64,000 nucleotides of DNA, from the IMG/VR virus record IMGVR_UViG_3300045988_160093; one strand, written 5' to 3'. This document shows positions 40,728 through 63,839 of the stretch, in pieces. Origin of the DNA: a virus. The position numbers and the translations under genes were made by a program. The notes under the pieces were generated by a model that ran no database searches, was not told the origin of the DNA, and saw only the letters and a program-made list of their open reading frames with translations. Position 1 is the first letter of the stretch; each line of letters starts with the position of its first letter.

Positions 40728-42356
40728 ATGGTGAAGAAAGAGAATACGCAGACTCCGTTAGGTACGGTAAATCCGTATGATGGCAATACGACTCCGAAGG
40801 ATAATGTGCAGAGTGGTACGACTCAGGCGCCTAATTTATGGGCTAATGGAGGCAGTGTTTTGGGCAATGCAGTGAATAATGTTTTCGGTGCTCCTCAGAC
40901 TGCTGTGAATACTCAGGCTAATGTTCAGCAGACGGGGAATGTGGTTCAGAACGGAAACACAGTTTCAAATGTAGATGCAACCTCAAACGGAAACGTAGTT
41001 CAGAATGCAGGTGCAACCCCAAATGTGGGCGCAACGCCAAACGGGAATGCCGTTGCAGAAGGTAAGGATGGGAATAATGTTCCGACCGTCACCGATGCTA
41101 AGAATGGGAGCGAAGCTCAGAATGCAGTCACTACTACTGAAGGGAACGAAGTGCAGAGTGGAGATAAATCTACTGAAGGAAATCCGCAAGAGGATGTAAA
41201 GCAGCCCGAATTGAATGAAGACGAGCAGGCTTTGCTTGCAATGCAGAATGCGTCCATGGAGGATTATAGGAAGAGATACAAGCAGGCGAGTGACATCACG
41301 CAGGGGGTTTATGATTATCTCAATGGTGGTTCCGATGCAGAGGAAGAGCCTTACAAGAAGAAGAACGAAAGCAAGAAGAAACTTTTAGCATTGGCTGACG
41401 CATTGAGACACATCGGCAATCTTTTCTACGTAAACAAGGGTGCTACTCCACAGCAGTTCAATTCGCCTGTCTTGATGCAGGAACAGCGATACCAGCAGGA
41501 GAAAGCCGAAAGAGAAAAGAAGAGGGCTTCACAAGCTAAAGCGGCAATGGACAAAGCCAAGATGGATGCTGATGCAGCGTATAAGGATGCGATGCTTGGT
41601 ATGAAGCAAAATGATTTCATGCGCAATGTCTATAACGATAATAGAAGATATGGTCTTGACAAGGATAAGTTCGCCTGGCAGAAGGATAAGGACACGCAGA
41701 GTCTCGGTTTGAAGAAGCAGGGACTTGAAGAGACCGTAAGGCACAACAAGGCGAATGAGGCACAGGGCAGGGAAAGGAATGCCATTGCCCGTCAGAGATT
41801 GGCTATAGCGAGAGCTAAGGAGGCGAGAGAGGCGAGAGATGCAGGTCCGGGTTCACTCGGTAAGGGCAGCAGAACGTTTGTTACTCCACAAGGTGTCGTA
41901 TATACATTGAGCAGAAATTACTTGCAGCCTGCAAACATTGTGACCATCTATAACAAGATGAAAGAGCATGGTTGTTTGAAGAAGGGCAGCGAGAATACAT
42001 ATAAGTTTGATTCAGACCTTTTGGAGCAATTAGGATTGGGAGGATCCGGCGGCTCTACGGCAAAGATGCTCAGCGCGATATTGTGTTCGGCTACTGATAA
42101 CCCGACGGCACATTATTGGCATTGGAAGTTGGGTTCACCGCTGGGCTACGAATACGAAGGTGGTATGAGTGACGAGCTGAAAGCTAAATTGGTCGGTACA
42201 GGCAAACCAAGGAAAGCAGCAAGCAAGCCAAAGCCAGCAAGCAGACCAGTGAGTAAGTCAGTGAGCAAGTCAGTGACTAAGCCAAAACCGAAAAAGTCTG
42301 CAAACCATCAGAATGGAGGAAGAAAGGGAAATAACCGTAGTAATTTGGTAATATAA
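40728..42356 (+). CDS. low-complexity N/G/V-repeat plus K/R/E coiled-coil protein (virion cargo candidate)
   Basis: NGNVVQN-type repeats at the N-terminus, basic tail KPKPASRPVSKSVSKSVTKPKPKK. Confidence 0.55.
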   Translation: MVKKENTQTPLGTVNPYDGNTTPKDNVQSGTTQAPNLWANGGSVLGNAVNNVFGAPQTAVNTQANVQQTGNVVQNGNTVSNVDATSNGNVVQNAGATPNVGATPNGNAVAEGKDGNNVPTVTDAKNGSEAQNAVTTTEGNEVQSGDKSTEGNPQEDVKQPELNEDEQALLAMQNASMEDYRKRYKQASDITQGVYDYLNGGSDAEEEPYKKKNESKKKLLALADALRHIGNLFYVNKGATPQQFNSPVLMQEQRYQQEKAEREKKRASQAKAAMDKAKMDADAAYKDAMLGMKQNDFMRNVYNDNRRYGLDKDKFAWQKDKDTQSLGLKKQGLEETVRHNKANEAQGRERNAIARQRLAIARAKEAREARDAGPGSLGKGSRTFVTPQGVVYTLSRNYLQPANIVTIYNKMKEHGCLKKGSENTYKFDSDLLEQLGLGGSGGSTAKMLSAILCSATDNPTAHYWHWKLGSPLGYEYEGGMSDELKAKLVGTGKPRKAASKPKPASRPVSKSVSKSVTKPKPKKSANHQNGGRKGNNRSNLVI

Positions 42357-42357
42357 T

Positions 42358-45300
42358 ATGGCAGACAAGATAACGCAGGTATATAATGCCTATAAGGCAG
42401 ACGGAGCAACGCGAGCTCAGAGCGAGCAGCAGTTCCGTAATTGGATGTACGGCGACAATTATCGCCGTGGAGTATGGAATGATTTGAGAAAGCAGGGTGC
42501 TCAAGTAGGTACGTTTGAGCATTTCACCGAAGCTTTGGGCTATAAAATGAATCCCAAAGTGAAGAGCAAGGTTGCCAAGCAAGCCATTCAGTATGGTGCA
42601 CCGAAAGTCCCTGACAACTGGGGGCAGATGGATATGGGCAGGACATTCGCCAATGACGAGATGGAGCAGCAGCTTGAAACACAAAGGAACAATCAGGCTT
42701 CGTCCAATGCAAAGAAGACCGGAAGTAACGAGCCTATAGCTCAAAGAGTGAAAGAAAAGTTGAATAGGACACATCTGAAGGAGGCGAGCAAGTCTGGGAC
42801 TATTATGAATCCGTTGACAGGTGAGCCTATAAACAATGTTCCTACTTACAGGGAAAAGAAAGAAGGCAAGTACTGGAATCCTATTACGGAAACAGATATG
42901 GGTGATGCTGTACTTGACTGGAGTACTACTGATGCCAATGGCGATAAGGTGGCGCAGACTCAAACCAAGCAGAACTTTGAGGCTGATGCAGCGGCAAAGG
43001 CAATAGCAAATGAGCTGACTAAAACTGCTGACTATAAGGGGAAATGGGCTAAATTTGATAGCGAATTTGAAAAACATCACGGACTTGTGTATCATCCTGC
43101 CGAATACGAAGAGAATAAGAAGTATAGAGAGGAAGGATTTGACGATAATTCCAAAATGCTGTATGAGAAGTATGCTCCAAAGCTTGAAGATGTAAGCGCA
43201 CTCCTCGGCAGTAAGAACGCAAAGGAAGCCATTGTAGCGGCGGCTTCAAAATTAGGTATAACACCTGATGATTTTCTGAATCGCTATGTCGTCCCGGCAA
43301 CTGAAAAAGCCAATGAAGAAGAATACCATAAGCGAGGCATAGAACATTTTATGCCAAAGAACGCTTGGGAAAATATGAAAGCCAATTTCGCTGTGTCGTC
43401 TTTGGGTAACGCAGCAAATAAAAGCTTGGTTCCAGAGGAATATCAGAACATGCGCAATGAAGCAGTAGAAACGTATTCTGATGCGAACAGCAAGACGCTT
43501 GACGAGAAAGGTGTGTTCAGTAAGGAAGGAATACAGGCACTTGGACGAAATATTTCCGGAGGTACGGCAAGGGTTATGCCGGATGCCGTAGGTTTTGTTA
43601 TTGCCGGCGCTGAAGCGAAAGGTGTTGTCAAAGGTCTTGAAATAGGATGGAAAGCTCTGCGAGGAACAGGTTTGGTAACAAAAGTACTTGGCAAGGCAGT
43701 TCCAAAGACATTGACTTCTCTGACGAAGAAATATGGCGCACAGACAGCAGGAAGAATCCTCAATGCGGTGAACAATGAAAGCATAGGAAGCTTCATACAG
43801 GCTAATGCAAGGCAGTTTGCGCAAGGTTCCTTGACAATGGGTATTTTTGAAGCAAACAATTACCTTGCTACAGAAGGTCGGGAGAAAATAAAAGAAGGCA
43901 AATGGGGGGAGTTTGCCGAAGGACTCTACACTTCCGGAATGTCAGGCTTGGGTACAGGTATGCTATTTTCAGGAATAGGTACGGTAACTGGCGCTCTTGG
44001 TCGTAACCTTGGTGTAACAGGCAGAGAGACAACAAGACTTGAAAAACTAAAGCATGGAACTGAGAAAGCCTTGTTCTCTGCCTCGGCATTATTTGTAGAA
44101 GGACTTGGTTTCAGGGCAGAGGATCTATATGACGAAGCAAAGAAAGGCGAGCTTACTTTTGGTAGCGTTCTTGAAAACGGAGGAAAGGGAGTTATCGACA
44201 AGATAACAATGGATTTAGGAATGGCGGCAGGTAAAGGAAAACGCCCCAGTCTAAAACAAATGGTAGTCGGTGCGGTTGCCAACACTAATCCACACGTTAA
44301 ATTCTCTGCCGTAGAGAAGAACGAGCTGATGAAAAGTACAGGAGGCAAGAGCTTGTTTGAAGCGTTGGATGGTATAGCGGAAGGCAAGAATGTTTCTCCT
44401 GTGTACAGAACGAAGATGAGCGAGTTTTTCAATGATCCGAACATCTCAAGACGTACAAAGCAAAAGGTGGCTTATGTTGTAGGTAAAACTATAGACACCA
44501 ATATGCCGAGGACGGAAAGGGTTTCTATTTCACAAGGAACATCAGGGACACAGGAGGTCCGCACGTATTCCAAAGACGGAGAACTACTGACTGTCGATGT
44601 ATATAAAAATGCAGAAGCCGCAGAAGTGGCAAAACAGGAAATCTACGCAAAGAGAGACAAGAATGATTTTATCGCATTGTGGGTAGACAGCCTGAAACCG
44701 ACACAATCTGAGAATAATACAGCCTTGGAAAACACAGCAAAAGAGCTGGGCTATGATGACGTAGGCGTTTTCCTGGCAGACTGGGATGAAGCTCAGAAAA
44801 GCAGCGATGCGGATTTTCTTTCAAAAGTCTCAAAGACGATAAACGAAAACATCGGAAAGATTGTTGCAGACAGACACAAGCAGATGCTTGATGCAAAAAG
44901 AGCAATCAATGAGGAATACGATGTAGATATAGACAAGGTCTTGGATAAAAACCCCGTTATGTGGAAAGACAAAGAACGGGAAGCAGTAAAAGAGTTGGGC
45001 AGTCGTTTGAAGAAAGGTTTTTCAGACAAGAACGATGAGGCTCATAATAATGCTATAGCCCGTCAGGACGGTGCTGATTTGTCAGAGCAGACTGAACTTG
45101 AGGATTCAGAAAAAGTCATTGAGTCATCGCAAGCAGTCAACGAGAGACTTGATTCGGCAGTCGAGGCATGGCGAAAGATGCAGGAAGAGAACCCTGACCT
45201 TGCAGAGTGGATGAAGAACAATCCTGATTCGACGGTGGAAGAGCTAAGAGAAAACTTCGGTGATTATGTAGCCGATGCGTATATGGAGTTAAGCAATGCC

Positions 45301-48300
45301 AAGGCTATGCGAGACGGTTTTATTCAGAATACCGGCGAAAAGATTGAGGATGCCGTAAAGAACCAAGTGGAGCAGGCGAAGTTTACCGGCACCATGCAGA
45401 ATAAGGAAGGCTCAAAAGTTGTAACAGATAACAGTGTTACTGTTTTTGCAGACAAAGACGGAAACGAATACACACTTGTTGGCGGAGACGTCATTGTTGA
45501 TTCGGCAGGAGACGGTTCGTATAGTGCAGGAAAATCGGGACTTGTAATATTCCGTGACAAGGATGGTAATCTTATTCAGCGTACAAACTTCGATGGGCTG
45601 AATGAAGTAGGGACTTTCTCATTGGAAGACTATGCCAACCGCATCCGCACAACCCTGCAGGAACAGAAGACAGCCGAGATTCAGAGTACCGAAACACCGT
45701 TGCCGGAGAGTCAAAATAAAGAAACGCCGAAAGAAGAATTACCATCCGAGGCGCCAAAGAGTGAAGAACCGAAAGAAGAAGATTTTATCCGAAACTCCAA
45801 TTCGGAAGAAAAGTTATCGTCAGAAAAAGACGAATGGGGGAATCCTCTGATAAAGGCAAGTGACGGTAGTGTAGACTTCGGTGAAATAAGTGAAGGTTAC
45901 GGGCTACAGGCAGCTCCTATCAGACTTAGCCTTGGTGAGAATAAGAAGAACCCCGAAACAGGCAAGGATGAAGGTTATGGCTTGTTGCATATTGAAGCAA
46001 GGCATGGTGATCAGATAAGGAAAGCCGGTTTTAATTCTATTGAAGAGTTTGTAGAATCAATAGCCAGAGACTATACGGAGATACGTGAGGGGGTCCAAAT
46101 AGGAACTACACAGACTTATCTCATTGTCAAAAAAGACGGTCATGCAAATACTCTTTATATCGAGCTTTCGCGTGACGGTAAATATTGGAACGTGAACAGC
46201 GCAGGAATATTCAAGGAGAAATATGTAAACAGAAAAAACGAAATCAAGCCTGAACCCACGGTGGGGAGTAGTACAAGCACCGATACTACTGGAGTTAATC
46301 ACGGCCTTAACGAGGGTGCAACCGTCACCAGCGGGAATTCTCCCATGATTTCTGATAGCAAAGATACGACAAAATCCTCAGACTTGCAAGAGGGTAATGA
46401 AACTTTAACATTCAAGAATACAGAAGCAGCCAAGGAAGAGTCGAATTACGAGAAGAACGACATTCCTATGGACAATGAGGGTGAGCCGGTATACGAGCAG
46501 GTGCCCAAGGAGAGGACTGCACAGGATTTGTTTGACAAGTTGGGCGATGGCAATGTAGCTCACAATTACGCTCAGATAAGAATAGAAGGAGCAGAGAAAG
46601 AGCTGAAAGAAGCCAAGAAGAAAGAGCCGAAGATAGGTACGAAGATAAACGAGTATCTAAAGAAGAAGCAGGAATATGAAGACAGAGTGAAAGCCGCAGA
46701 GGACAAGGTGGCTTATTGGGAAAGCGTGAAGGAGGAAATAGAGAAGCTTACCCATACCACACCCGAAGAGCTGAAAGAAGCACAGGAAGAACTTGACGGA
46801 ACGGCAGCACGGGAAGAGTACAAGAAAACGGTAGGCGAGACACAGCCTGCAGACGGCGTGTCTTTGGCAGCTGAGTTTGTAGTAGACGCAAGGATTACAC
46901 CTGAGAGTTTCAGAAAAGAGACAGGTCTGAGCGCTGCTGATCAGCGGACGTTTGTCGGTATGATTGCAGGTGCCGAGAAAGGCGGCAAGTCTATAGAGAG
47001 ACTTGGTGAAGAACTGGTAGAGTATGACAACGCGTATTATGGCGGAGCGTATTTCCATGGAGATTCCAACGATGCAAGGAGTGCCATCATTTCCGCTTTG
47101 ATGAGTGCCAAGTCGAGAAAAGGTCTGAGAGAGATGGCTCAGCCCGATATGGAGAGAGAAGTCCGTGAACGTGCACGGATGAGAGATGAGGCTTATCACG
47201 AGAGATACGGCATGGATTATGAGGAATATTTGTCATATTCTGAGCAGGAGATGCCACATATATTGGGAAAATTGAATAACTTTGACGAGCAAAAGTATTT
47301 GCAGGACAAAGCAGAAGAAATTACTAATCAAATAAATAAAGAACATGGAAAAACCGATAGAGAAAATGACTCCTCAAGAGAAGAGTCAGTACATGGTGCA
47401 GGCGATAAAGTATTGCCTGAAGAAAGGATTGATGACCGAGGAAGAGGTGAAAGCCCCAAGGAACATGGAGGAAGAGAAAAGGCTGAGCGCCGAGGCAATA
47501 CTGAGGATGCGCCTCTACATGAAACGCCATCCGGAGGAGAAGTAGAGAAGGGGGAACGTAAAGAAGAAAAACCGTCAGACCCATCCGACGCAGCCGAAGG
47601 AATGCGAGGAGCTGCCGAGCAATTCCATGAAGAAAGAGTGGAGAAGGCACGCAAGGCGTATGAGGAAGCCAAGGCGAGCGGTGATGTGTCAGAGACGAAA
47701 CGCACGAAAGACGAATACAGGAAAGCCCTTGACGACAAGTTGAAGGCGCAGGGTATTGGTCTTATTGAGAGGAGGAAGACTATAGCCAAGGAGATGGGTG
47801 AAGAACCGAAGGTTGAAAAGCCTAAAGGTGAAGGTCCGAAAGTCGGTGAGAAGCAGTGGGAGGATATGACACCTACGGAGAGAGCCGAGAAAGCCGATGC
47901 CGATCCATTGACCGAAGACGAGATACGCAGCGATGAAGACAACAAGGAGCTTGCAGCAGCGGCAATAGCCTATCTCAATGGTGATAAGAGTTTGTTAAAC
48001 CAAATAGCTTATTTAAAAATTTACGGAAATGTTAGGAGTAGACATGAGGATGTTCCCGGCAATAGCGGAACAGAAGACACATCACAGCTGGCTGCAACCG
48101 ATAATGGAGGCGGCGAAGGAATGGAGCTGGAGTCAGGACGAGGCAGCGGAGGAACTGCTGAGCCGATGGATAGAGGAGCAGGCGGAGAGACTGCACCCGG
48201 AAAGCAAGAGAGCGGAGAGACTGGTAAGGGAAACGCTGATACTCCTGCTGGAGAAGGAAGCCATATCGAAGGTGAAGGAGGAGCACCCGGACTGGGCGGA

Positions 48301-51300
48301 CTACCTGCCGGAAGTGGTGGACGCACAGGAAGCGGCAATGCTGGGAGCACGGGAAGTGTGGGCAGAGGACGAGGACGAGGAAGCGGCAGCAGACCTTCTA
48401 AGTCAAATGGAAAGCGGAAGCCTGCAGCCAAGCAAGGAACTACTTTCCCGAATAGCAAAGGGCGAGATGTAAAGCAGGAGACAAAAGATGCGAAAGCGGC
48501 GATGTTGGCGGCTTTTGCAGAGTTCAACAAGAGGAACAAGAAGGACAAGAATATCCTTTCTTCATCCTTCCTGCTCGGTTTAGAAAAACATCTTCCAACA
48601 GCCGAAGCTCTCGAATATCTGCCAGACGTGATGAAAGCGACAGGCAGATACGGTGTTGCCCTTATCGGTGAAGGAATCTACAAGACAAAGGAATGGATAA
48701 AGAATGTACGTGAAGCAATCTTCGATGTAATGAAAGAAGGTGGTTTCTCAGATGCAGACATCGACGAGTATATCAGAGAGATGTGGCACATGCCTTGGGA
48801 GATGGATGGGGAAACCCACAAGATAGGCGAATGGGCAAGCATCAAGGGGTATGCTGGTCTTAGAGAGAGCCTGAAAGAACCTTTGCGTAAGAAGTTTGAC
48901 AAGCAGGTACTTGCGGAGCCGACGGAAGTAAAGGTGGGTGACAGAAAGAATATTGAAGAGACTTTGCCTTTCCTTCTACCTCAGCAGCAGGACGATGTGC
49001 TGAAAGCCGAAACACAGTTCTTTGATGAGAGCCATAAGGACAAAGCCCACGCCAACGGCAAAGGATATATGTTTACCAACGGTACTGGAACGGGTAAGAC
49101 GTACACAGGACTTGGCATCATCAAGAGAATGGTGAAGCAGGGCAAAGGAAGAATCCTTATCATTACTCCAAGCCAGCAGAAAGTAAAAGACTGGATAAAT
49201 GACGGAAAGAACCTTTGCCTTGACATCAGAGACCTTGATGATTGGGCAAACGAGCGAGGCAGCACTGCCACGAACGAGAAAGGCGATGGTGTTGTGATTA
49301 CAACCTTTGCTAATTTCGGCACGAACAAGAGGCTGCTTGAAGACCAATTCGATGCGATTGTCTATGACGAGAGCCATAGAATCATGGAGAATAAGAATGC
49401 CACCGAGACAGCACGAAGCAGACAACACTACATGCTCAGCAACAGGAACGAGAGTTACGCCTTGATGAGATTGGAGGAAATCAATCCTGACTGCATGAAG
49501 ATGCGTGGTCTTGCAGAAGACTTTGAGGATGCGCGAAAGAAAGAGGTAGAGCGAATACAAGCCGAATACCGAAAGGAGCATCCGTCAGAGAATGAGAAGG
49601 AGATGAGATTCCATACATCCAAGTCGCTGCCAAAGGACATCCATTCTTTTAGTATTTCAGACAAGGCGAAATTCCCCGAGCTTGGCAAGATATACGAAGA
49701 CTATATCAAGGCGAGAGACTATTATATTAATAATGTGAAGCCAAAACTGGAGAAGCAGGCAAAGGAATCCGTAGACAAAACAAAGGTGGTGTTCCTTTCC
49801 GCTACTCCGTTCAATACAAGAGAGAACATAGAGTATGCCGAAGGTTATCTCTTCTCATACCCAGAGAGAAATGAAATGGGGCAGAGCGGCAAGACGCAGT
49901 TCTTCCTTGAACATTTCGGTGCAGGATACAAATACCGCTATCACAGACTGGAGAGCAGTACATCAAATGCCGAAGCACTCGCCAAGCAGGAGATAGCTTT
50001 CAGTGACTGGTTGCAGAATGACTTGGGTACGATGAGCGGTAGGGTGATCGACAGTCCGTTTGACTATTCAAGAGATTTCCCTACGGTATCAGTAGAACAC
50101 GCTGACGAGTTCAATACAGCCTGCGAGGAGATTTCACGAGACAAGATATTCGGTGACGCATACAGGAAGGTGCTTGGTGACTACAATTATGGTAGCGCCC
50201 TGTTTGAGACAATGAAGGTGTCAGCCCTCCTACCGAGATTGAGAGAACACCTTGCAGCAGGTCGAAAGATAGTAATCTTCCATAGGCGAGTGACGAGCAA
50301 GGAACCATTGAAAGCCCCGTTCGGAATGATACTTGGCGAGCAGGCAGAGCAGACCATCAAAGCACTGCCGAAGGAAAAGCAGCCGGAAGCAAGAACCCGT
50401 CTGAACGAATTGAGGGACAGGTATTCGGGATTGCTTGAGTGGGAGAAGACCTTGGATTTCAGTATGCCGAGAGAACAGCTTGCAAAAGCTTTCGGAGAAG
50501 ACAACGTGTTGTATTTCAGCGGCAGCGAGAACAAGAAAGTGAAGAGTGAAGCCGTAAAGCAGTTCAACGACGACAACAGCGGCAAGAACATCATTGTGAT
50601 ACAGGAAGCGAGCGGTAAGGAAGGTATCTCCCTCCATGACACCACAGGCAAGCATCAGAGAGTATGTATCACTTTGGCTTTGCCTCAGAGTCCTATCACA
50701 GCCCTGCAGATAGAAGGAAGAACATACCGAATAGGCAACGAGAGCAATGCCATCTTTGAATATCCTGTACTTGGACTTACAAGCGAATACAACCTTTTTG
50801 CAAGCAAGTTCAACAGACAGGTGTCGACGACTGAGAACCTTGCCCTTGGTAGCCAGGCGAGAAACCTAAGAGACAGTTTCGCAAGAGGCATCGAGGAACA
50901 TAGCGGTGTTGTCCCCATTGACCAGCAGGGCGTGGGTGGCAAGGAGTTCGATAAAGGTGATGCCAACGAGAACGACCCGTTTGACAATGCAGTCCTTGAC
51001 TACTATACCAACCAAAGGTTGAACAAGAACAACCGAGAGGGAGTAGACTACTTCCCGACCCCCGAACCCCTTGGCTACAAGATGGTGGAATGGGCAAATA
51101 TTGGAGAGGGAGATTCGGTATTGGAGCCGAGTGCCGGTCATGGTGCGATAGCGAGATATGTTCCACAATCAAACGAGCTTGTGGCTATAGAGCCAAGCAT
51201 GAGCCTGTTTGCAAAGCTACAGATGAAAGCAGGAGGCTTGGGCAGGAAATTCCAGAACGAGACCTTTGAGGCATATCATATAAGCAACAAGCATGATACA

Positions 51301-54300
51301 ATCGTGATGAATCCACCATTCGGACACGCAGGAGCCACAGCGATAGCGCATATAGAAAAGGCGTTCGGACATTTGGAGGAAGGCGGACGTATGGTAGCCA
51401 TCATCCCGAGGGGTGCGATGGACAAGAAGTTCGACAAATGGTATGACAATGAGAAGACCGCGGCAATGCGAGCCGAGGTGGACCTTCCTGATATAGTATT
51501 CCAGCAGGCAGGAACATCGGTAAGATGCAGAGTGGTAGTCGTTGACAAGATAACCGACTCTAAACTCCGTGAGCAGGCGCATATGGAGAAGGCGGATTTG
51601 AGTGGTCATTACGACAAGATAGAAGATTTCTTCAACGACCTGCGAAATATAGAAGTCCCCGACAGGATCATCGATACCAACTTCAAGATGCAGAAGATGA
51701 GCAAGAGTGCAGTCAAGAGCTTGAAGGAAATCAGGGATGTATGGTCAGCAGATGTTGACAAGGACGGTGTGCACGTCAGGACAAGCAGCTGGATGGGTTA
51801 CGACATCAGCTTTACGGGTAGCGAAGACCCGAAGCGATGGAAGGACAAGATGGCGGCGACTTATGACAAGTACGCCCAGATGGAGAAGTCGGAATTGAGA
51901 GAAGGCAACAAAGCCGTGTTCGGTGAGTTGAAAGAGCTTGCATGCAAACTTGCAGGAATGACCGAAGACGAGATGAGAAGGTATCTCGTAAGCAAGGGGG
52001 CAGGTAGTGTAAAGTTCCGCAAGAACGACAATCTAACCCCCGAAGAGCGCCGGTCAGAGGAGCGCATGGAGGAACATCATGTCGAAGTTGCCAAGGCGGC
52101 GGAGAATCTGAATACGAAAGTTAACGTGTGTGTGGACATCAATGATGTGACGAATGCGGAGGCGAGATCAGCTATAGAAAGAGGTGAGAAAGTGAAAGCT
52201 TGGTACGATACCCGAACGGGAGAGGTGCACGTTTATCTTCCAAATGTCACAGACAAGTATGACGCACAGATGAGCGTAGCCCACGAGGTGGTAGCCCACA
52301 AGGGAATGAGAGGACTCCTTGGTGAGGAAGGCTATCGGAGTATGATGCGCAGAATGTACACACACCTTTCCAATGAGGAAGCGAAGGAGGTGAACGAGCG
52401 CATGATGAAGAACGGATGGGACTTCTATACAGCAATGGACGAGTGGGTGGCAGACAAGGCAGAGGAAAGCGTGTTCACACCAAAGTATGTAGTGATGAAA
52501 GACGGTCTGCACCGATACCCATTGGATAAGGTATTCCATATCGTGACGGAGGCTATGCACGATGTAGGGTATAGGATTAATCCGAACGTGGACGATGTGA
52601 AGTACTGGTTGTGGGCGAGCAAGAAGGGATTGAAGAACGGCGATGCCTACACGGAAATGAAGCGCAACTCGTTCTTGTGGCGACTGAACCACAATACATC
52701 GAATGACGGAATTGAGAACGGAGAGTTCGTGGAAACAGGCGGAGTCAGATTCAGTAATGGAAATAGTAAGTTGAATGGCGAAGATTCAGAAAAATTATTC
52801 GCATCTTTGCAAAACAAAAAAGGAAAGGAATATTATGACACAGTTACAGAAATCGCAAGAAGAGTTGTCGAACGAAGAAACGGCAAGGCAACAGTTCTTG
52901 AAGAATCCAATGGAAAATCGGAGAGTGATACTAATGAGAGCTTCTACGGAGGATTTAAAAGTGTTGCTCACTGCGCTGCTTCAATCATCACACATGACGT
53001 TGAAAGAAGCGTTTATGCAGATGTCGCGAACAGGGAAAATAAAAGCCGCGGGTCTGAATCCGCTGGAGAAGGCTTATATGCAAACATTGACAAGAATGTA
53101 CGGTCACAAGGACTTGGAGCAGAGAACAAGGAGGGGTTGGCTAACCGAGTCAACAGAGAAATTTTCAGCAGACTTAAAGACTGGGCTGAGCAAAACCACG
53201 CTTGGCTTGATAGACGAAATTTTGGAAAAAAATATCCAACTTCCAATAAAATAGGCGAAGGCGAGGAAGCAGAAGTATATTTATCAAAAGACGGTAAGAG
53301 CGTACTTAAAATCATTCATAATGATACTTATCTAAATCCTGTAGGAAGCAAACTTGATGAACTTGCATATGAGAATATAGCATTGGGTGATAACGAGCGT
53401 AAGGTTATCGGTTTCATGAAAGACCCGTATGCTTTCAATGATAATATGCTTATTCTTGTTGAACAGCCTTATGTTGAAGGCAAAACCGTTGATGAAATTT
53501 ACGGAGGAGACACTCCCGAAGCCTTGGCTTTTATAGACAAGGTTATGAAAGATAAAGGTTTTGAAGTCAAGGAAACCCCATTTAGCGAAGACTTGGATGA
53601 TTGGCTTGTGAAGACCTACTACAATAGAGATTTTACAATACGTGACGTAAACACGGGAAATGTAATTGTAGATAAAGACGGGAAACCACATGTCATTGAT
53701 GTTTATGCTTTTATTAATCACGGTGAATTTGAGAAGTATGGTGATAATAGTATTCCTGCTAATACTGCTAATTTTGAAATCGATTTCACCAAACCGACAA
53801 ATAAAAGTGCTGAAAGAAAAGTTAACTCACAAGCAAAGGGTAGTGGCAACATCCGTTTCCGTAAAGACGACAAGGCGAAGCATGAGTCAACCTTGTTCCG
53901 CAAACCCAGTCTTGACAGGAGCAAGAACGATACACCTCTGATGTCAGCGACAAAGGACTCCATCGACAAGGCACTCAACAATTGGAACGCACGAAGAATA
54001 GAATGTTGGACCGACGACAAGCACGGACTGAGAGTATTCCAACAGAAGCTTGCCGAAGGATTGACGAAAGGCATGAACGACAGTATGGACTCCTATCATG
54101 GAGCCATTAACCAAAGTTCCATTGTCAGAGAGAAACAATACCAGTTTGAGACGAGAGAGCTGAAAACGATGAACGATGCCGTGAAGGAATGTACCCGAAA
54201 GCTTGGCGGCGGTATGGAAGGATATGAAGAGCTGAATAAGTATGCCTACGTGAAGAGCGGTCTTGAAAGAAACAGAGTGTTGTTCGTGAGAGACGCAGCA

Positions 54301-57210
54301 GAGCAGGTAGACAAAAAAATCATGAAGCTCAACAAAGAAGCCCTCGACAAGGACCCACAGGCGACGACCCTCGCCAAGATGGGAGTTGAAGAGTTCAGAG
54401 ACGCATTCCATTCAGAAAAAAAGTTCCAGGAAACATTGCTCAATTCCGGCAAGATAAGCCTTGCAGAATACTACAAAGCCCTTGACGACTTCATAAAAGG
54501 TTTCAGTTTTCCACATACAGGTGACGCAGGAAAGAACGCCTTGATAGACAAGCTCAATGATTGGTATGCCGACAAGATAGGCGGCAAGTATGACGAGAAT
54601 GAGAATGACTATTCCGGAATAAGGAAATTCGACGACTTTGACAGTGACGCAGAAAGGATAGACTACGTGATGAATACGGAAGCCACTTTGGGCGAAGGGT
54701 CAAAGAACAAGTTGTGGCAAGGAATAGGCGGAGTGACACGTTTCGCCATAGACAACGACTATAATTATGGAGTGATAAGCAAGGATGTTCATAGCAGAGT
54801 CTCAAGTATGTTCAGTTGGTATATTCCTATGCGAGGATTCAAGGAAGACACGATGGAGGATATGTACGCTTATATGCACAATGAGATTTCCGATGGAGGC
54901 AATGTCAGTTCGGTAGTAAAGAGAGCCGACGGACGAACGACACTTGCCGACAGTCCGTTGGGAACGGCAGCAGCCCTTGCGGAGCGCAGTATCTCAAACG
55001 GCGAGGACAACCGCAACAAGCAGAGACTTTACAGACTCGTGAACCAGTGGCTGAAAGACCACACTACGACCAACGAGGACGGAAAGATAGAACTTACCGA
55101 AGAAGCCCCGGCAGTGATCAGTGAGGTGTGGTATAAGAAAGTCACCGACCATACGACAGGTGAAACATATTGGGAAGCCGTAATGCCGGATATAGACGGA
55201 GAGAAGGACCCCAAGCAGATACGCGCGAAAGTGGAACGCTTTGAAGAGAATATGCGCAATGCAGAGAAAAACGGCAACGCTACACGAACACTGCAGAAGG
55301 GAACGTTTGCCAAGCCATTCAAGGTGGCGAAACACAAGAACGAGCACGTTGTCTTTGTCAATGTAAACGGAAAGCAGAAGATGATAATCATGCAAGGCAA
55401 TCCACGTCCTGCACAGGCAATCAACGGAGATACGGCAAGCGATGTGACAGCAGGCAGGCTGATGAGAGGAATGAGTGCGATGTTCACATCATACAACATA
55501 ACGTTCAGTGTCACGAATACAAGCAGAGACACCTTCTTCGCCAACAACAACGTTGCAATCAGAGAAAATGCTGCATATTACGCTCGCTTCGTGAAGAACC
55601 AAGCCCTTATGGGAGGTTCTATGCTTCAAGGAACCGTTATGATGAACATGCCGAAGGTGAAAGGAATGTACTATCAGTTGTGGTCAGACTACAAAAAAGG
55701 CAAGAAGCTTACAGGCAAGTACGGTAAATATTTCGAGGAGTATATGAACAACGGCGGCAAGACAGGCTTCGTACAGACCAAGACGATAGAAGACTTGGAG
55801 AAACATATCAGAAATGAAGCTACGCAAAAGATGCTGTCAGCCTCGACGTTGGGCAAGGTAATGAGTAAGGTGCCCGAAGTGATAGAAGCCTTGAATGAAA
55901 GGTCAGAGAATATGAACCGCTTTGCTTGCTACGTGACAAGCAGGGAGATGGGAAGAAGCGTCATGCGCAGCGTTTCAGATGCGAAGGAGGTCAGCACGAA
56001 CTTCAACCGCAAGGGTTCAGGAAGCAAAGCCTTCAAAGGAACGAACGCAAAGGCATGGGAGAAATGGCAGGGATGGTTATATGATAGAGCCAAGAGCTAC
56101 TATCTCTTCTTCAATGCCGGAATGCAGGGCTTGTCTGTGCTGACCAACAACTTTGTGAGGCACAAGGTGAAGACCGCGGCCTTTGCAGTAGGAATCCCGA
56201 TATTGTTCGCGAGCAGTATAATACCGGCCCTCAACAGTTGGATAGCATCCTGCTTTGACGAGGACGACCAGTATGACAACCTTAGCGAGTGGGAGAGGAG
56301 AAACAATATCTGCATATACGCAGGACATTCCAACTGGGTAAAGGTGCCGTTGCCGATTGAGCTGAGAGCCTTCTACGGCTTTGGAGACATAGCGTTAGGT
56401 GTGACAAATCCAGCCTTCCGTTCAGAAAAAGGATTGTGGCTTGACATGCTGTCACAGGTGACGCAGATACTACCAGTTGACTTTATGGGAGAAGGCGGAG
56501 ATTTTTGGGGAGCTTTAATGCCAGATGTTGCCAAACCACTTTACCACGTTTGGGTTAACAGAGACTGGACCGGCAAGCCTATATACAAAGACTACGATTA
56601 TCTGAAATACGAGCCCGAATACCAAAAGGTGTTCCAGGGAGAAAACGAGTGGTTTGTATCGTTCAGCAAATTTATAAACGAGATGAGCGGCGGTAACGAG
56701 CACGTGAAAGGTTCTCTTGACGGAAAATGGAACAACCCTGCAATATGGGGTGAAATCATCACCGGATATGGAGGCGGTGCATTGTCGGATGCCATACGTA
56801 CAGGAAAGCTGGCAACGAGAGTAGCCACATGGAATTGGGAAGATTTCTCCACAAGAGAAGTACCGATGGTAAGAGCCTTGTACAGTTCGGCAACCGAGAA
56901 AACAAAATACTACAGGTCGCTCAGCAAGTATGCCCATTATAAGGAAGATGCCGACAAATACCTGCATGACTTCAAGGCAAATCTGAAAAGCGACAATCCG
57001 TTGTATGTGATGAAGGCAATCAGCGATATGAAGCGAGAGTCGCCGGAGTTCGTGAGGATGGCGAAAATCCACGGGTTTGAGAAGAGTATCAAGGACCTAA
57101 AGAAAATCGCCAACAACGAGAAGATTCCGAAGAAAGCCCGCGATGAGGCAAAAGAGCTCATCAACCAAGAGAAAGTAAAACTCGTGAAAGAATTTGAAAG
57201 TGACGAATAG
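42358..57210 (+). CDS. giant (4950 aa) polyvalent multidomain protein, probable packaged/ejected anti-defence cargo
   Basis: Uninterrupted 14.85-kb ORF with ATG start; multiple enzymatic motifs (see the domain entries). Confidence 0.85.
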   Translation: MADKITQVYNAYKADGATRAQSEQQFRNWMYGDNYRRGVWNDLRKQGAQVGTFEHFTEALGYKMNPKVKSKVAKQAIQYGAPKVPDNWGQMDMGRTFANDEMEQQLETQRNNQASSNAKKTGSNEPIAQRVKEKLNRTHLKEASKSGTIMNPLTGEPINNVPTYREKKEGKYWNPITETDMGDAVLDWSTTDANGDKVAQTQTKQNFEADAAAKAIANELTKTADYKGKWAKFDSEFEKHHGLVYHPAEYEENKKYREEGFDDNSKMLYEKYAPKLEDVSALLGSKNAKEAIVAAASKLGITPDDFLNRYVVPATEKANEEEYHKRGIEHFMPKNAWENMKANFAVSSLGNAANKSLVPEEYQNMRNEAVETYSDANSKTLDEKGVFSKEGIQALGRNISGGTARVMPDAVGFVIAGAEAKGVVKGLEIGWKALRGTGLVTKVLGKAVPKTLTSLTKKYGAQTAGRILNAVNNESIGSFIQANARQFAQGSLTMGIFEANNYLATEGREKIKEGKWGEFAEGLYTSGMSGLGTGMLFSGIGTVTGALGRNLGVTGRETTRLEKLKHGTEKALFSASALFVEGLGFRAEDLYDEAKKGELTFGSVLENGGKGVIDKITMDLGMAAGKGKRPSLKQMVVGAVANTNPHVKFSAVEKNELMKSTGGKSLFEALDGIAEGKNVSPVYRTKMSEFFNDPNISRRTKQKVAYVVGKTIDTNMPRTERVSISQGTSGTQEVRTYSKDGELLTVDVYKNAEAAEVAKQEIYAKRDKNDFIALWVDSLKPTQSENNTALENTAKELGYDDVGVFLADWDEAQKSSDADFLSKVSKTINENIGKIVADRHKQMLDAKRAINEEYDVDIDKVLDKNPVMWKDKEREAVKELGSRLKKGFSDKNDEAHNNAIARQDGADLSEQTELEDSEKVIESSQAVNERLDSAVEAWRKMQEENPDLAEWMKNNPDSTVEELRENFGDYVADAYMELSNAKAMRDGFIQNTGEKIEDAVKNQVEQAKFTGTMQNKEGSKVVTDNSVTVFADKDGNEYTLVGGDVIVDSAGDGSYSAGKSGLVIFRDKDGNLIQRTNFDGLNEVGTFSLEDYANRIRTTLQEQKTAEIQSTETPLPESQNKETPKEELPSEAPKSEEPKEEDFIRNSNSEEKLSSEKDEWGNPLIKASDGSVDFGEISEGYGLQAAPIRLSLGENKKNPETGKDEGYGLLHIEARHGDQIRKAGFNSIEEFVESIARDYTEIREGVQIGTTQTYLIVKKDGHANTLYIELSRDGKYWNVNSAGIFKEKYVNRKNEIKPEPTVGSSTSTDTTGVNHGLNEGATVTSGNSPMISDSKDTTKSSDLQEGNETLTFKNTEAAKEESNYEKNDIPMDNEGEPVYEQVPKERTAQDLFDKLGDGNVAHNYAQIRIEGAEKELKEAKKKEPKIGTKINEYLKKKQEYEDRVKAAEDKVAYWESVKEEIEKLTHTTPEELKEAQEELDGTAAREEYKKTVGETQPADGVSLAAEFVVDARITPESFRKETGLSAADQRTFVGMIAGAEKGGKSIERLGEELVEYDNAYYGGAYFHGDSNDARSAIISALMSAKSRKGLREMAQPDMEREVRERARMRDEAYHERYGMDYEEYLSYSEQEMPHILGKLNNFDEQKYLQDKAEEITNQINKEHGKTDRENDSSREESVHGAGDKVLPEERIDDRGRGESPKEHGGREKAERRGNTEDAPLHETPSGGEVEKGERKEEKPSDPSDAAEGMRGAAEQFHEERVEKARKAYEEAKASGDVSETKRTKDEYRKALDDKLKAQGIGLIERRKTIAKEMGEEPKVEKPKGEGPKVGEKQWEDMTPTERAEKADADPLTEDEIRSDEDNKELAAAAIAYLNGDKSLLNQIAYLKIYGNVRSRHEDVPGNSGTEDTSQLAATDNGGGEGMELESGRGSGGTAEPMDRGAGGETAPGKQESGETGKGNADTPAGEGSHIEGEGGAPGLGGLPAGSGGRTGSGNAGSTGSVGRGRGRGSGSRPSKSNGKRKPAAKQGTTFPNSKGRDVKQETKDAKAAMLAAFAEFNKRNKKDKNILSSSFLLGLEKHLPTAEALEYLPDVMKATGRYGVALIGEGIYKTKEWIKNVREAIFDVMKEGGFSDADIDEYIREMWHMPWEMDGETHKIGEWASIKGYAGLRESLKEPLRKKFDKQVLAEPTEVKVGDRKNIEETLPFLLPQQQDDVLKAETQFFDESHKDKAHANGKGYMFTNGTGTGKTYTGLGIIKRMVKQGKGRILIITPSQQKVKDWINDGKNLCLDIRDLDDWANERGSTATNEKGDGVVITTFANFGTNKRLLEDQFDAIVYDESHRIMENKNATETARSRQHYMLSNRNESYALMRLEEINPDCMKMRGLAEDFEDARKKEVERIQAEYRKEHPSENEKEMRFHTSKSLPKDIHSFSISDKAKFPELGKIYEDYIKARDYYINNVKPKLEKQAKESVDKTKVVFLSATPFNTRENIEYAEGYLFSYPERNEMGQSGKTQFFLEHFGAGYKYRYHRLESSTSNAEALAKQEIAFSDWLQNDLGTMSGRVIDSPFDYSRDFPTVSVEHADEFNTACEEISRDKIFGDAYRKVLGDYNYGSALFETMKVSALLPRLREHLAAGRKIVIFHRRVTSKEPLKAPFGMILGEQAEQTIKALPKEKQPEARTRLNELRDRYSGLLEWEKTLDFSMPREQLAKAFGEDNVLYFSGSENKKVKSEAVKQFNDDNSGKNIIVIQEASGKEGISLHDTTGKHQRVCITLALPQSPITALQIEGRTYRIGNESNAIFEYPVLGLTSEYNLFASKFNRQVSTTENLALGSQARNLRDSFARGIEEHSGVVPIDQQGVGGKEFDKGDANENDPFDNAVLDYYTNQRLNKNNREGVDYFPTPEPLGYKMVEWANIGEGDSVLEPSAGHGAIARYVPQSNELVAIEPSMSLFAKLQMKAGGLGRKFQNETFEAYHISNKHDTIVMNPPFGHAGATAIAHIEKAFGHLEEGGRMVAIIPRGAMDKKFDKWYDNEKTAAMRAEVDLPDIVFQQAGTSVRCRVVVVDKITDSKLREQAHMEKADLSGHYDKIEDFFNDLRNIEVPDRIIDTNFKMQKMSKSAVKSLKEIRDVWSADVDKDGVHVRTSSWMGYDISFTGSEDPKRWKDKMAATYDKYAQMEKSELREGNKAVFGELKELACKLAGMTEDEMRRYLVSKGAGSVKFRKNDNLTPEERRSEERMEEHHVEVAKAAENLNTKVNVCVDINDVTNAEARSAIERGEKVKAWYDTRTGEVHVYLPNVTDKYDAQMSVAHEVVAHKGMRGLLGEEGYRSMMRRMYTHLSNEEAKEVNERMMKNGWDFYTAMDEWVADKAEESVFTPKYVVMKDGLHRYPLDKVFHIVTEAMHDVGYRINPNVDDVKYWLWASKKGLKNGDAYTEMKRNSFLWRLNHNTSNDGIENGEFVETGGVRFSNGNSKLNGEDSEKLFASLQNKKGKEYYDTVTEIARRVVERRNGKATVLEESNGKSESDTNESFYGGFKSVAHCAASIITHDVERSVYADVANRENKSRGSESAGEGLYANIDKNVRSQGLGAENKEGLANRVNREIFSRLKDWAEQNHAWLDRRNFGKKYPTSNKIGEGEEAEVYLSKDGKSVLKIIHNDTYLNPVGSKLDELAYENIALGDNERKVIGFMKDPYAFNDNMLILVEQPYVEGKTVDEIYGGDTPEALAFIDKVMKDKGFEVKETPFSEDLDDWLVKTYYNRDFTIRDVNTGNVIVDKDGKPHVIDVYAFINHGEFEKYGDNSIPANTANFEIDFTKPTNKSAERKVNSQAKGSGNIRFRKDDKAKHESTLFRKPSLDRSKNDTPLMSATKDSIDKALNNWNARRIECWTDDKHGLRVFQQKLAEGLTKGMNDSMDSYHGAINQSSIVREKQYQFETRELKTMNDAVKECTRKLGGGMEGYEELNKYAYVKSGLERNRVLFVRDAAEQVDKKIMKLNKEALDKDPQATTLAKMGVEEFRDAFHSEKKFQETLLNSGKISLAEYYKALDDFIKGFSFPHTGDAGKNALIDKLNDWYADKIGGKYDENENDYSGIRKFDDFDSDAERIDYVMNTEATLGEGSKNKLWQGIGGVTRFAIDNDYNYGVISKDVHSRVSSMFSWYIPMRGFKEDTMEDMYAYMHNEISDGGNVSSVVKRADGRTTLADSPLGTAAALAERSISNGEDNRNKQRLYRLVNQWLKDHTTTNEDGKIELTEEAPAVISEVWYKKVTDHTTGETYWEAVMPDIDGEKDPKQIRAKVERFEENMRNAEKNGNATRTLQKGTFAKPFKVAKHKNEHVVFVNVNGKQKMIIMQGNPRPAQAINGDTASDVTAGRLMRGMSAMFTSYNITFSVTNTSRDTFFANNNVAIRENAAYYARFVKNQALMGGSMLQGTVMMNMPKVKGMYYQLWSDYKKGKKLTGKYGKYFEEYMNNGGKTGFVQTKTIEDLEKHIRNEATQKMLSASTLGKVMSKVPEVIEALNERSENMNRFACYVTSREMGRSVMRSVSDAKEVSTNFNRKGSGSKAFKGTNAKAWEKWQGWLYDRAKSYYLFFNAGMQGLSVLTNNFVRHKVKTAAFAVGIPILFASSIIPALNSWIASCFDEDDQYDNLSEWERRNNICIYAGHSNWVKVPLPIELRAFYGFGDIALGVTNPAFRSEKGLWLDMLSQVTQILPVDFMGEGGDFWGALMPDVAKPLYHVWVNRDWTGKPIYKDYDYLKYEPEYQKVFQGENEWFVSFSKFINEMSGGNEHVKGSLDGKWNNPAIWGEIITGYGGGALSDAIRTGKLATRVATWNWEDFSTREVPMVRALYSSATEKTKYYRSLSKYAHYKEDADKYLHDFKANLKSDNPLYVMKAISDMKRESPEFVRMAKIHGFEKSIKDLKKIANNEKIPKKARDEAKELINQEKVKLVKEFESDE
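43550..44290 (+). other. glycine-rich hydrophobic region of the giant protein
   Basis: GFVIAGAEAKGVVKG ... SGMSGLGTGMLFSGIGTVTGALG ... MVVGAVAN. Confidence 0.4.
45835..46224 (+). other. compact His/Arg motif module, possibly a BECR-type (barnase/EndoU/colicin-like) RNase domain
   Basis: GYGLLHIEARHGDQIRKAGF (aa 1206-1225) within a roughly 130-aa globular-looking block; the assignment is from memory of polyvalent-protein domains. Confidence 0.3.
48106..48440 (+). other. G/S/E/R low-complexity (RGG-like) linker
   Basis: GGGEGMELESGRGSGG...GSVGRGRGRGSGSRPSKSNGKRKP. Confidence 0.7.
48960..50780 (+). other. superfamily-2 (SNF2/DEAD-like) helicase domain
   Basis: GTGTGKT at nt 49081 (aa 2242-2248), DESH at nt 49366 (aa 2337-2340), QIEGRTYRIG at nt 50707 (aa 2784-). 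Confidence 0.8.
51040..51560 (+). other. N6-adenine DNA methyltransferase domain
   Basis: YFPTPEPL, VLEPSAGHGAI (nt 51118, motif I), NPPF (nt 51310-51321, motif IV). Confidence 0.8.
52150..52460 (+). other. zincin-like metallopeptidase motif region
   Basis: HEVVAH (HExxH) at nt 52282-52299 (aa 3309-3314). Confidence 0.5.
53200..53760 (+). other. protein-kinase-like fold
   Basis: IGEGEEAEVY (aa 3632-3641), K3651 in VLKIIH, RDVNTGN (D3763, N3768), VIDV (D3781, 18 residues after D3763). Confidence 0.55.
56166..56255 (+). other. hydrophobic (TM-like) helix in the C-terminal region
   Basis: VKTAAFAVGIPILFASSIIPALNSWIASCF. Confidence 0.45.
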
Positions 57211-57225: not shown

Positions 57226-57253
57226 GGAAGAGTCTTGATTGGCTCTTCCTTTT
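57226..57253. terminator. bidirectional intrinsic terminator between convergent operons
   Basis: A5, GGAAGAG/CTCTTCC stem, TTTT. Confidence 0.65.
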
Positions 57254-57257
57254 ATAG

Positions 57258-59097: not shown

Positions 59098-59108
59098 ATA
59101 GTATGTAT

Positions 59109-61718: not shown

Positions 61719-61720
61719 AT

Positions 61721-63685: not shown

Positions 63686-63839
63686 ACGAAAAACTTTTTT
63701 CACAAAAATACAAATATGCGGATTGTGTTTTTCCGAACCCGCACATCGTCAGCGGTGTGAACGAGAACCAAGGAGAAAAATAATCAAGACATATCATAGC
63801 AGTTTCGGCGAGAACGGAAATAACGGGTAGTAAAAGACT

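Follow-up and report, generated by a model that had tools for sequence, protein, structure and literature searches.

The locus studied here raises the question of what a phage does with a single protein of 4950 amino acids (aa). The gene occupies positions 42358..57210, on the plus strand, of a stretch of viral DNA of 64,000 nucleotides (nt; IMG/VR virus record IMGVR_UViG_3300045988_160093), the whole of which is called the window below. The virus is a temperate Bacteroidales phage with a P22-like portal, probably of a Prevotella/Segatella-like type. We find that the product is a polyvalent protein, and we consider it likely that it is packaged in the virion and injected into the host, a conserved chassis carrying exchangeable effector cassettes. 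The class, its Pfam domains, the giant size and the virion location are already in the literature, and by its sequence the protein is typical of a known and very large family, neither its size nor its combination of domains being unusual. The interest of the locus lies in strain-level turnover of cassettes, in a HExxxH domain that is an orphan in Pfam, in a conserved transmembrane (TM) helix and in a candidate junction motif.

An earlier note on this DNA, made from its letters alone, had described one unbroken giant open reading frame (ORF), and this description holds: the 4950 codons run from an ATG start without a single internal stop. A public assembly collection lists an identical product of 4950 aa in 30 of its blocks; 22 contigs of 20-200 kb, stemming from different projects (ENA, Logan), were read and carry it with constant neighbours. 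A chimeric join, which the note had wanted checked by read mapping, is ruled out by this recurrence in at least 22 metagenome contigs that were assembled independently, and for the same reason the gene is not an assembly artefact. Along the gene, the following parts were delimited.

42358..57210, plus strand: giant polyvalent-protein gene, 4950 aa, no internal stop
42358..42785, plus strand: N-terminal leader (aa 1-143), 90-95% nt identity among strains
42786..45342, plus strand: strain-variable segment (aa 144-995), from allele comparison
45693..46420, plus strand: cassette slot 1, PBECR-like module (aa 1113-1354), GC 0.43
aa 1379-1636: helical region common to phage BF1-TP2
47266..48555, plus strand: linker of 430 aa (aa 1637-2066), low hydrophobicity, RGG/GRGRGRG at aa 2002
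48886..50907, plus strand: superfamily 2 (SF2) helicase, Strawberry-notch (Sno)-like (aa 2177-2850), from Pfam and PHROGs
50995..51687, plus strand: N6-adenine DNA methyltransferase (MTase; aa 2880-3110), from PHROGs and motifs
52066..52770, plus strand: zincin-like HExxxH domain (aa 3237-3471), with H3309, E3310, H3314 and E3362
52743..53882, plus strand: cassette slot 3 (aa 3463-3842), GC 0.39 against 0.51 and 0.47 in its flanks
53170-53706, plus strand: Kinase-PolyVal domain (aa 3605-3783), PF18762
53941..57207, plus strand: conserved C-terminal chassis module (aa 3862-4950), mostly alpha-helical
56152..56223, plus strand: TM-like helix (aa 4599-4622), directly before LPD38
56263..56868, plus strand: LPD38 (aa 4636-4837), PF18857

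All motifs listed in the earlier note were located in the translation, at these residues of the plus-strand product.

aa 1206: GYGLLHIEARHG
aa 2002: GRGRGRG
aa 2242: GTGTGKT, helicase motif I
aa 2337: DESH, helicase motif II, with a further DESH copy at aa 2223
aa 2784: QIEGRTYRIG, helicase motif VI
aa 2923: EPSAGHG, MTase motif I
aa 2985: NPPF, MTase motif IV
aa 3309: HEVVAH, a HExxxH motif
aa 3633, 3651, 3763 and 3779: kinase set GEGEEAEVY, K3651, DVNTGN and VIDV

Helicase, MTase and kinase, which had been proposed from such motifs, are recovered by Pfam and PHROGs profiles. The helicase region matches ResIII (52.7 bits), AAA_34 (38 bits; gathering cut-off, GA, 27) and Helicase_C (26.3 bits), with the Helicase_C_4 C-lobe at 30.1 bits, slightly under its GA of 30.5, and it aligns with phrog_10691 at 9e-243. 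In addition to motifs I, II and VI it carries motif III (SATP, aa 2481); motif I and the Q, G, R, R core of motif VI are present in 26/26 homologues and the other residues of motifs I, II, III and VI in at least 24/26. The MTase matches phrog_6263, 'DNA methyltransferase', at 2.6e-21 and Pfam MTS at 23.4 bits (GA 23), and the gamma-class N6-adenine (N6A) MTase signature is complete, with an FPTP helix at aa 2899 ahead of EPSAGHG and NPPF; these motifs are kept in 22-26 of 26 homologues, except F2988 (14/26). Helicase and MTase follow each other in this order, with a gap of about 30 aa, in all 30 family members that have both. The kinase matches PF18762 at 56 bits (GA 27, E = 6.1e-15) with its ATP-binding and phosphotransfer residues intact, G3635, Y3641, D3763, N3768 and D3781 being found in 13/13 homologues and K3651 in 12/13. 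Kinases of this type come mainly from (pro)phages of Bacteroidetes and Verrucomicrobia (PMC5512222). Since the catalytic residues are invariant or nearly so across diverged homologues, the three domains appear to be under selection for activity.

The assignment to the polyvalent class made in the earlier note is borne out by these matches together with that of LPD38 (PF18857, 1.1e-28 to 3.1e-30, 101-106 bits, GA 27). Polyvalent proteins, with Kinase-PolyVal, PBECR, LPD38, an MTase-helicase dyad and a metallopeptidase (MPTase) hub, were described by Iyer et al. (2017, J Bacteriol; PMC5512222), who also described processing by the MPTase and proposed that such proteins are packaged and injected with the DNA. 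Like them, the window protein joins many disparate enzyme domains in one polypeptide beside virion genes: helicase, MTase and kinase are at or above their thresholds and PBECR-like and zincin-like modules come in addition, two of the typical LPD/-PolyVal domains (LPD38 and Kinase-PolyVal) are above GA, and the portal and terminase-like genes, the mark of the phage type of polyvalent protein, lie within 7 kb. It differs from that description (PMC5512222) in several respects: the helicase precedes the MTase, the opposite of the order stated there to be found 'nearly always'; LPD36 was not detected; the helicase is of the Strawberry-notch type, reported there in only 'a few instances'; and the HExxxH domain lies outside every current Pfam model.

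The case for packaging comes from the C-terminal module and from the gene layout. The module matches phrog_14770 at 2.3e-130, and LPD38 within it is restricted to phage-type polyvalent proteins (PMC5512222). Homologues of the module occur in Bcep22 gp75, aligned over window aa 4112-4760 (E = 2e-22), and in Stx2 phage 86 gp35, aligned over aa 4259-4855 (E = 8e-24). The giant gene is the last of a tightly packed module of three genes, each 1 nt from the next, as the earlier note had it:

40013..40726, plus strand: module gene 1, 237 aa, weakly matching T7_gp14, a family of internal virion proteins
40728..42356, plus strand: module gene 2, 542 aa, no family match
42358..57210, plus strand: the giant gene

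Bcep22 gp73, gp74 and gp75 (242, 532 and 4602 aa) have the same three-gene layout and nearly the same sizes, as do gp67, gp68 and gp69 (196, 510 and 4515 aa, the last called 'DarB-like') of the Burkholderia podophage JC1, all three of which are virion-associated by mass spectrometry (MS; PMC9144972). In these phages, as in the window, the giant gene closes the virion block and convergent genes come next; the 542-aa gene equals in position the virion proteins JC1 gp68 and Bcep22 gp74. The identity is about 23% and limited to the C-terminal module, no similarity is detectable between the upstream genes, in Bcep22 the motif is HExxH instead of HExxxH and R[FY]R motifs are lacking, and the Bcep22-like phages of Burkholderia and Ralstonia differ from the window in host phylum and cassette set. 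The second line of evidence is phi24B gp47 (2811 aa; LPD5, LPD1, LPD38), which is abundant in purified virions and invisible in cryo-EM maps, and which its authors propose to be a capsid-packaged ejection protein (bioRxiv 10.64898/2026.04.10.717836). Stx2 phage 86 gp35 has the same Pfam set as gp47. The two proteins (2783-2811 aa; LPD5, LPD1, MuF_C, LPD38) share the homologous LPD38-containing C-terminus with the window protein and are encoded by the last gene of the structural block, adjoining the integrase, but are half its size, have other LPD modules and lack helicase, MTase and kinase. A looser likeness is that to T7 gp14-gp15-gp16, likewise three consecutive genes of rising size and with the weak T7_gp14 match of the first gene; here the third protein is nearly four times larger, finds no fold match among solved ejectosome structures, and shows in Pfam tiles no lytic transglycosylase (LT) domain, a feature of gp16. 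By analogy with the JC1 and phi24B homologues detected in virions by MS, the suggestion of ejected cargo made in the earlier note is strengthened.

The same module contains the only truly TM-like segment of the protein. Its AF2 model (pLDDT 74, pTM 0.66) is mainly helical, and the helix directly before LPD38 (aa 4599-4622) reaches 1.83 on the Kyte-Doolittle scale in a 19-residue window (KD19). To see the family as a whole, an exhaustive HMMER search was made with the C-terminal 1095 aa as query, its results were taken as cluster representatives, and architectures were counted on the best 150 of them; modules were counted by BLASTP of the window modules against these representatives. The equivalent helix has a KD19 of at least 1.0 in 149/150 of these relatives, and in 133/150 no 19-mer elsewhere in the protein is more hydrophobic, a pattern compatible with membrane insertion during ejection. 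The earlier note had seen hydrophobic segments near both ends; the C-terminal one stands as a TM-like helix, whereas the N-proximal ones, at aa 406 and 529, are weak Gly-rich stretches (KD19 1.1-1.25).

Packaging and ejection we infer from the homologues detected in virions, and activities, targets and processing are likewise inferred in the scheme that we propose. The chassis, made up of the HExxxH zincin-like domain and the C-terminal module of about 1100 aa with its TM-like helix and LPD38, would direct incorporation into the capsid and then exit or membrane insertion at infection, acting with the two small upstream gene products much like podovirus internal-core or ejection proteins, and the giant protein would leave via portal and tail. 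The N-terminal and central train of cassettes, with low-complexity linkers between them, would comprise a PBECR-like RNase, a Sno-like SF2 translocase coupled to the N6A-MTase, and Kinase-PolyVal. Helicase and MTase would track the incoming phage DNA, methylate adenines and so blunt restriction, a function analogous to that of DarB, while kinase and RNase would modify host proteins and RNAs early in infection; more speculatively, the peptidase may release the modules by cutting the polyprotein at linker motifs. The virion of a common human-gut Bacteroidales phage may in this way be equipped with a methylase-translocase, a protein kinase and likely an RNase, a cargo that could be active ahead of all phage gene expression.

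The earlier note had compared the protein with the phage P1 DarB architecture, a comparison that does not hold at the level of architecture. In both cases an N6A-MTase and an SF2 helicase are joined in one protein, DarB is virion-associated, the two MTases share the TP helix, motif I and NPPF/Y, and a shared cis-protection of injected DNA is plausible. In DarB, however, the MTase (145-290) precedes an SNF2 helicase (849+), the reverse of the order in the window, and the helicases belong to different clades, DarB matching SNF2-rel_dom and the window protein AAA_34 and Helicase_C_4. In a single BLASTP comparison the MTases are 24% identical over 261 aa (E = 1e-4), and only the motif VI region of the helicases aligns (E = 6e-4). 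DarB has 2255 aa and lacks kinase, PBECR, LPD38 and zincin; conversely, LPD36, which precedes the MTase in the DarB-type dyad, finds no match in the window protein. The reversed order, the different helicase clade and the marginal similarity lead us to reject a DarB orthologue. The window dyad may work like DarB, yet by architecture it is not of the DarB family. A true DarB-type, that is SNF2-type, helicase is found in Bacteroides phage BKO1-TP3, so both helicase types occupy the same slot within this phage group.

How readily the cassettes change is seen from close relatives. A locus of the same phage type, L014, shares 90-95% nt identity with the window over 10 kb of flanking genes, and four replacements separate the two inside the giant gene:

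aa 144-995: diverged allele
aa 1113-1354, PBECR slot: 351 nt instead in L014
aa 3224/3226: 709 nt extra in L014
aa 3463-3842, kinase cassette: 27 nt instead in L014

Other relatives vary at the same places. P0005, 96% identical, is without the kinase cassette. L006 is without both kinase and PBECR cassettes and has LPD3 inserted between MTase and zincin-like domain; the PBECR slot is shortened in L006 and L014 alike. P0004 carries in that slot a bona fide PBECR2 that has no sequence similarity to the window module. P0002 is 55% identical overall and 97% identical across the PBECR-like module, which argues for a recent exchange of the latter. GC content also sets the cassettes apart, at 0.39 for the kinase and 0.43 for the PBECR slot against 0.46-0.51 in the flanks. 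The giant gene reads as a constant chassis with exchangeable modules, and since near-identical phages differ by whole effector cassettes, the locus is a natural experiment on the turnover of counter-defence in gut phages. In L006/L007 and in L014 two or three overlapping ORFs cover the region, with the breaks exactly at cassette junctions; a second assembly, L007, reproduces the first break of L006, and split genes, programmed frameshifts or sequencing errors are candidate causes.

Several points weigh against the proposed scheme. The MS evidence concerns the homologues JC1 gp69 and phi24B gp47, not the window protein, and sequence comparison detects no similarity between the two upstream genes and the JC1 and Bcep22 virion proteins. 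The T7 gp14 link of the 237-aa gene is sub-threshold (PF24072, E = 6.6e-4, 20.1 bits against a GA of 27), and a family profile of its product found no match to T7 gp14 in the T7 proteome. The C-terminal model has no match to a solved ejection protein (Foldseek against the Protein Data Bank, PDB, best E 0.68), so the analogy with gp16 and the P22 ejection proteins is positional, not structural. Packaging a 550-kDa protein whole is physically demanding, and the phi24B authors leave open how a protein of more than 3000 aa is organised in the capsid (bioRxiv 10.64898/2026.04.10.717836). Anti-restriction is argued by analogy, the order being reversed and the similarity to DarB marginal, and the processing step is speculative, as the zincin assignment lacks profile and fold support. 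With these points in mind, one may ask whether the protein is mainly structural, an ejectosome or trans-envelope conduit of the kind of T7 gp16 or the P22 ejection proteins, in which length and membrane helix matter and the enzymes are dispensable passengers. The chassis is indeed the only family-wide part and is also found by itself in proteins of 800-1450 aa, enzyme cassettes are lost or swapped among close relatives that keep the gene, and the phi24B authors propose a conduit role for gp47. Yet the near-invariant catalytic residues of helicase, MTase and kinase over 13-26 diverged homologues do not look like those of passengers, and the lack of fold similarity to solved ejectosome proteins speaks against this explanation as well; we regard it as unlikely in its pure form, and note that conduit and delivery of effectors are mutually compatible.

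It is considerably less probable that the protein is not packaged at all and acts as a cytoplasmic DNA-modification or anti-defence enzyme, or as a prophage factor of superinfection exclusion resembling a restriction-modification (R-M) system. Type I and type III R-M systems, too, have a helicase and an MTase at their core, the phage is temperate, as its integrase indicates, hosts may capture polyvalent proteins for use against incoming elements (PMC5512222), and the best match in an NCBIfam scan is a dnd restriction-enzyme helicase, very weak and judged meaningless. Pfam scans, however, detected no nuclease domain, the gene sits in the late or virion block at the position of the MS-verified JC1 virion proteins and their Bcep22 counterparts, and LPD38 is limited to phage-type polyvalent proteins. 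Least credible, to the point of being negligible, is the idea that the long ORF is an artefact of assembly or sequencing, a chimeric join or a masked frameshift over two or three genes. It could appeal to L006/L007, where the region is carried as overlapping ORFs of 1973, 1646 and 987 aa, and to L014, where it consists of at least 1181 (running off the start of the locus), 2259 and 1343 aa. Against it stand the identical product on 22 contigs from various projects and assemblers, the many family members of 4500-6900 aa, including those in complete genomes of isolated phages, and the position of the splits, which fall at cassette junctions and not at random. We retain a packaged and injected polyvalent protein as the probable reading.

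The zincin-like domain is part of the chassis. The zincin claim of the earlier note is weakened: HEVVAH is present, but the motif is HExxxH, HExxH occurring nowhere in the 4950 aa, and neither a profile nor a fold match was found. By itself a motif of the HExxH type proves nothing, as about 0.16 are expected by chance in this composition. H3309, E3310, H3314 and E3362 are nevertheless invariant in 15 homologues that are 27-58% identical, and a homologous segment is found in 122/150 family representatives. The AF2 model (pLDDT 74, core 85-93) consists of a helix, three strands, the HExxxH helix and a Glu helix, an order of secondary structure compatible with a zincin. Pfam gave no match for the window domain or for homologous segments (four relatives, and 14 in a further scan), a profile of the region found nothing relevant among PDB sequences, and Foldseek with the model found no peptidase in the PDB (best E 0.24) and matched in BFVD other phage polyvalent proteins only. 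Since a HEXXXH variant of the polyvalent-protein MPTase has been described (PMC5512222), the domain is a probable but unverified metallopeptidase.

Short motifs of the form [VI][RK]F[RS] stand at several edges of the cassettes:

52009..52020, plus strand: VKFR (aa 3218-3221), 3 aa upstream of the site of the extra (LPD3) module in L014 and L006
52744..52755, plus strand: VRFS (aa 3463-3466), left edge of the kinase cassette
53851..53862, plus strand: IRFR (aa 3832-3835), 8 aa short of the right edge of that cassette

The giant protein has four copies, against a mean of 0.9 in shuffles, and three of the four lie within 10 aa of three indel junctions that were mapped independently by comparison with L014. 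Two copies bracket the LPD3 insert of L006, and in BF1-TP2 gp68 four copies mark the limits of domains: one precedes ART-PolyVal, one separates it from PBECR5, and the zincin-like domain has one on each side. Over the 150 family members [VIL]RF[RS] is enriched 3.7-fold (84 observed, 22.7 expected; 18-39 in permuted controls), and R[FY]R peaks at -50..0 (23) and +150..+250 (43) from the start of the zincin-like domain, about 2 being expected per 50-aa bin; only 20-26% of family members have a motif beside this domain. The motif could serve as a site of self-processing, as a recombination joint or as both, or could simply belong to conserved domain termini, and we offer it as a hypothesis and not as a finding. 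In its boldest form, which we think possible though doubtful, the protein is a true polyprotein whose HExxxH peptidase cleaves itself at [VI]-R-F-[RS] (R-[FY]-R) linkers: following ejection, the peptidase would cut itself out and release kinase, helicase-MTase and other effectors, and the same joints would be points of cassette exchange between co-infecting phages. If true, this would be the phage counterpart of cassette shuffling in polymorphic toxins. The chassis of zincin-like domain, TM helix and LPD38, the Pfam-orphan HExxxH domain and the candidate junction motif offer biochemical handles beyond the 2017 description.

The earlier note had not recognised the size and combination of the protein, and the family leaves little of that novelty. 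In the HMMER search 4531 cluster representatives passed E <= 1e-3, and 1021 of these passed E <= 1e-30. Among the best 150, where the match is at the extreme C-terminus in nearly all, lengths have a median of 4537 aa and a maximum of 6927 aa, 121/150 being at least 3000 aa and 57/150 at least 4950 aa long. MTase was counted in 34, helicase in 30, kinase in 12 and the PBECR-like module in 10 of them. P0152 (6565 aa) has every named module of the window protein, and P0012 (5007 aa) and P0013 (5041 aa) have nearly its architecture. Proteins of 5391 aa (BS-TP4 gp3) and 5553 aa (BKO1-TP3 gp55, 'DarB-like antirestriction') from isolated Bacteroides phages were already in GenBank. A unique size and combination is rejected on these grounds.

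BS-TP4 and BKO1-TP3, together with BF1-TP2, are isolated temperate Bacteroides phages and the nearest deposited relatives of the window phage. The zincin-like domain and C-terminal module of BS-TP4 gp3, BKO1-TP3 gp55 and BF1-TP2 gp68 (3633 aa) are homologous to those of the window protein at 25-31% identity. All three phages have the portal, the terminase-like gene, a rhomboid-like gene and the small-small-giant gene module; the likeness to the window extends to the P22-like type of the portal, an integrase and a homologous first module gene, and in BS-TP4 and BKO1-TP3 the giant gene is immediately upstream of the portal gene. The cargo on this chassis differs: InPase, ART-PolyVal and PBECR5 in BF1-TP2; ddrB-ParB, InPase and the SNF2-type helicase in BKO1-TP3; and neither Kinase-PolyVal nor the Sno-like helicase of the window in any of the three.

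The C-terminal module can be followed further. An alignment-based scan of the Genome Taxonomy Database (GTDB), with one genome per species, gave 167 loci with the module, nearly all in Bacteroidales, the closest being in Prevotella sp. UBA1104 (51% identity) and one lying in the chromosome of Phocaeicola massiliensis DSM 17679; a single C-terminal sequence as query found nothing in GTDB genomes. In word-indexed protein searches the N-terminal 1400 aa retrieved only four proteins and the C-terminal 1095 aa only five, megablast of the giant gene against 50,697 phage records gave no match, and phmmer of the whole protein against PDB sequences matched the MTase only (0.015). By tblastn the module significantly matches the archaeal Methanosarcina virus MetMV (E = 1e-19) and the Bacillus podophage Dartukuta. 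Its distribution thus crosses domains of life and envelope types, which bears on models of a trans-periplasmic conduit specific to Gram-negative hosts. Within the module, aa 4277-4390 (55186-55527) weakly match Nmad5, nucleotide-modification-associated domain 5, below its threshold (24.4 bits, GA 27, E = 3.5e-5), in a stretch that overlaps the beta-rich part of the model.

Towards the N-terminus the protein is less well defined. The leader (aa 1-143) has weak similarity to the N-terminus of BKO1-TP3 gp55. In the strain-variable segment (aa 144-995), which has no Pfam match and includes the two Gly-rich stretches of weak hydrophobicity (aa 406 and 529), identity between alleles is about 55%, against about 94% in the flanking DNA (L014, L015, P0002, P0003), as might be expected of either a diversifying or a recombining region. 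The PBECR-like module has its core at about aa 1173-1289, with H1211 and T1265, and a low-complexity linker on each side. The earlier note had seen an RNase-like module here; the conserved His and Thr speak for it, H1211 being found in 11/11 homologues and T1265 in 9/11, whereas the profile evidence falls short. No PBECR RNase model (PF18809-PF18814) reaches its threshold, the best being PBECR3 at 17.5 bits (E = 0.004, GA 30), and 4/11 homologues match PBECR3 (best 7e-4) and 2/11 match PBECR1 (7.6e-4), all below GA. In hhalign the module aligned with the PBECR1 alignment at a probability of 56% and not with those of PBECR2 and PBECR5, a test that is insensitive since its positive controls, PBECR families against each other, failed too. 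An RNase-like identity is weakly indicated. The 430-aa linker at aa 1637-2066 is probably disordered.

Around the giant gene, the following features were located:

21144-23135, minus strand: SbcC-like ATPase
29916-31058, plus strand: integrase
57226..57255, strand not assigned: hairpin GGAAGAG-N10-CTCTTCC, then TTTTAT
59592-61724, minus strand: terminase-like gene, 708 aa, terminase models matching the C-terminal ~150 aa only
61721-63703, minus strand: P22-like portal, PF16510, 1.6e-33

The 237-aa product of module gene 1 is 34% identical to BF1-TP2 gp70; PF24072 is precomputed in 8 of its best 120 homologues, and as a query in IMG/VR it found no related loci. BLASTP and HMM searches against Bcep22 gp73 and gp74 gave no match. 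The hairpin, with a 7-bp stem, a 10-nt loop and flanks of an A-run and TTTTAT, separates the giant gene from the convergent minus-strand genes and is probably a bidirectional terminator. A scan for consensus promoters and terminators performed no better than on shuffles, and missed this hairpin because its loop exceeds 8 nt. No tRNAs were found in the window.

Beyond the hairpin, three of four adjacent minus-strand genes at 57258-59579 (208, 253 and 156 aa) match phrog_19255, a family of unassigned function, and form a local cluster of paralogues between the giant gene and the terminase-like gene. A rhomboid-like membrane protein of 152 aa (57881-58339, minus strand; PF01694, 20.5 bits, slightly under the cut-off) is also encoded in this packaging block, an odd place for it in a head module; its counterparts are annotated as rhomboid in BF1-TP2, BS-TP4 and BKO1-TP3. 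Homologues of the 708-aa terminase-like protein are labelled 'tail spike protein' in deposited Bacteroides phage records whose own notes cite terminase structure hits, and the label is likely a misannotation. Genes resembling PcfJ and DpnD/PcfM, families known from conjugative plasmids, are found in the early region, at about 33000-36000 in the window and at 1-2845 of a related 135-kb contig (L002).

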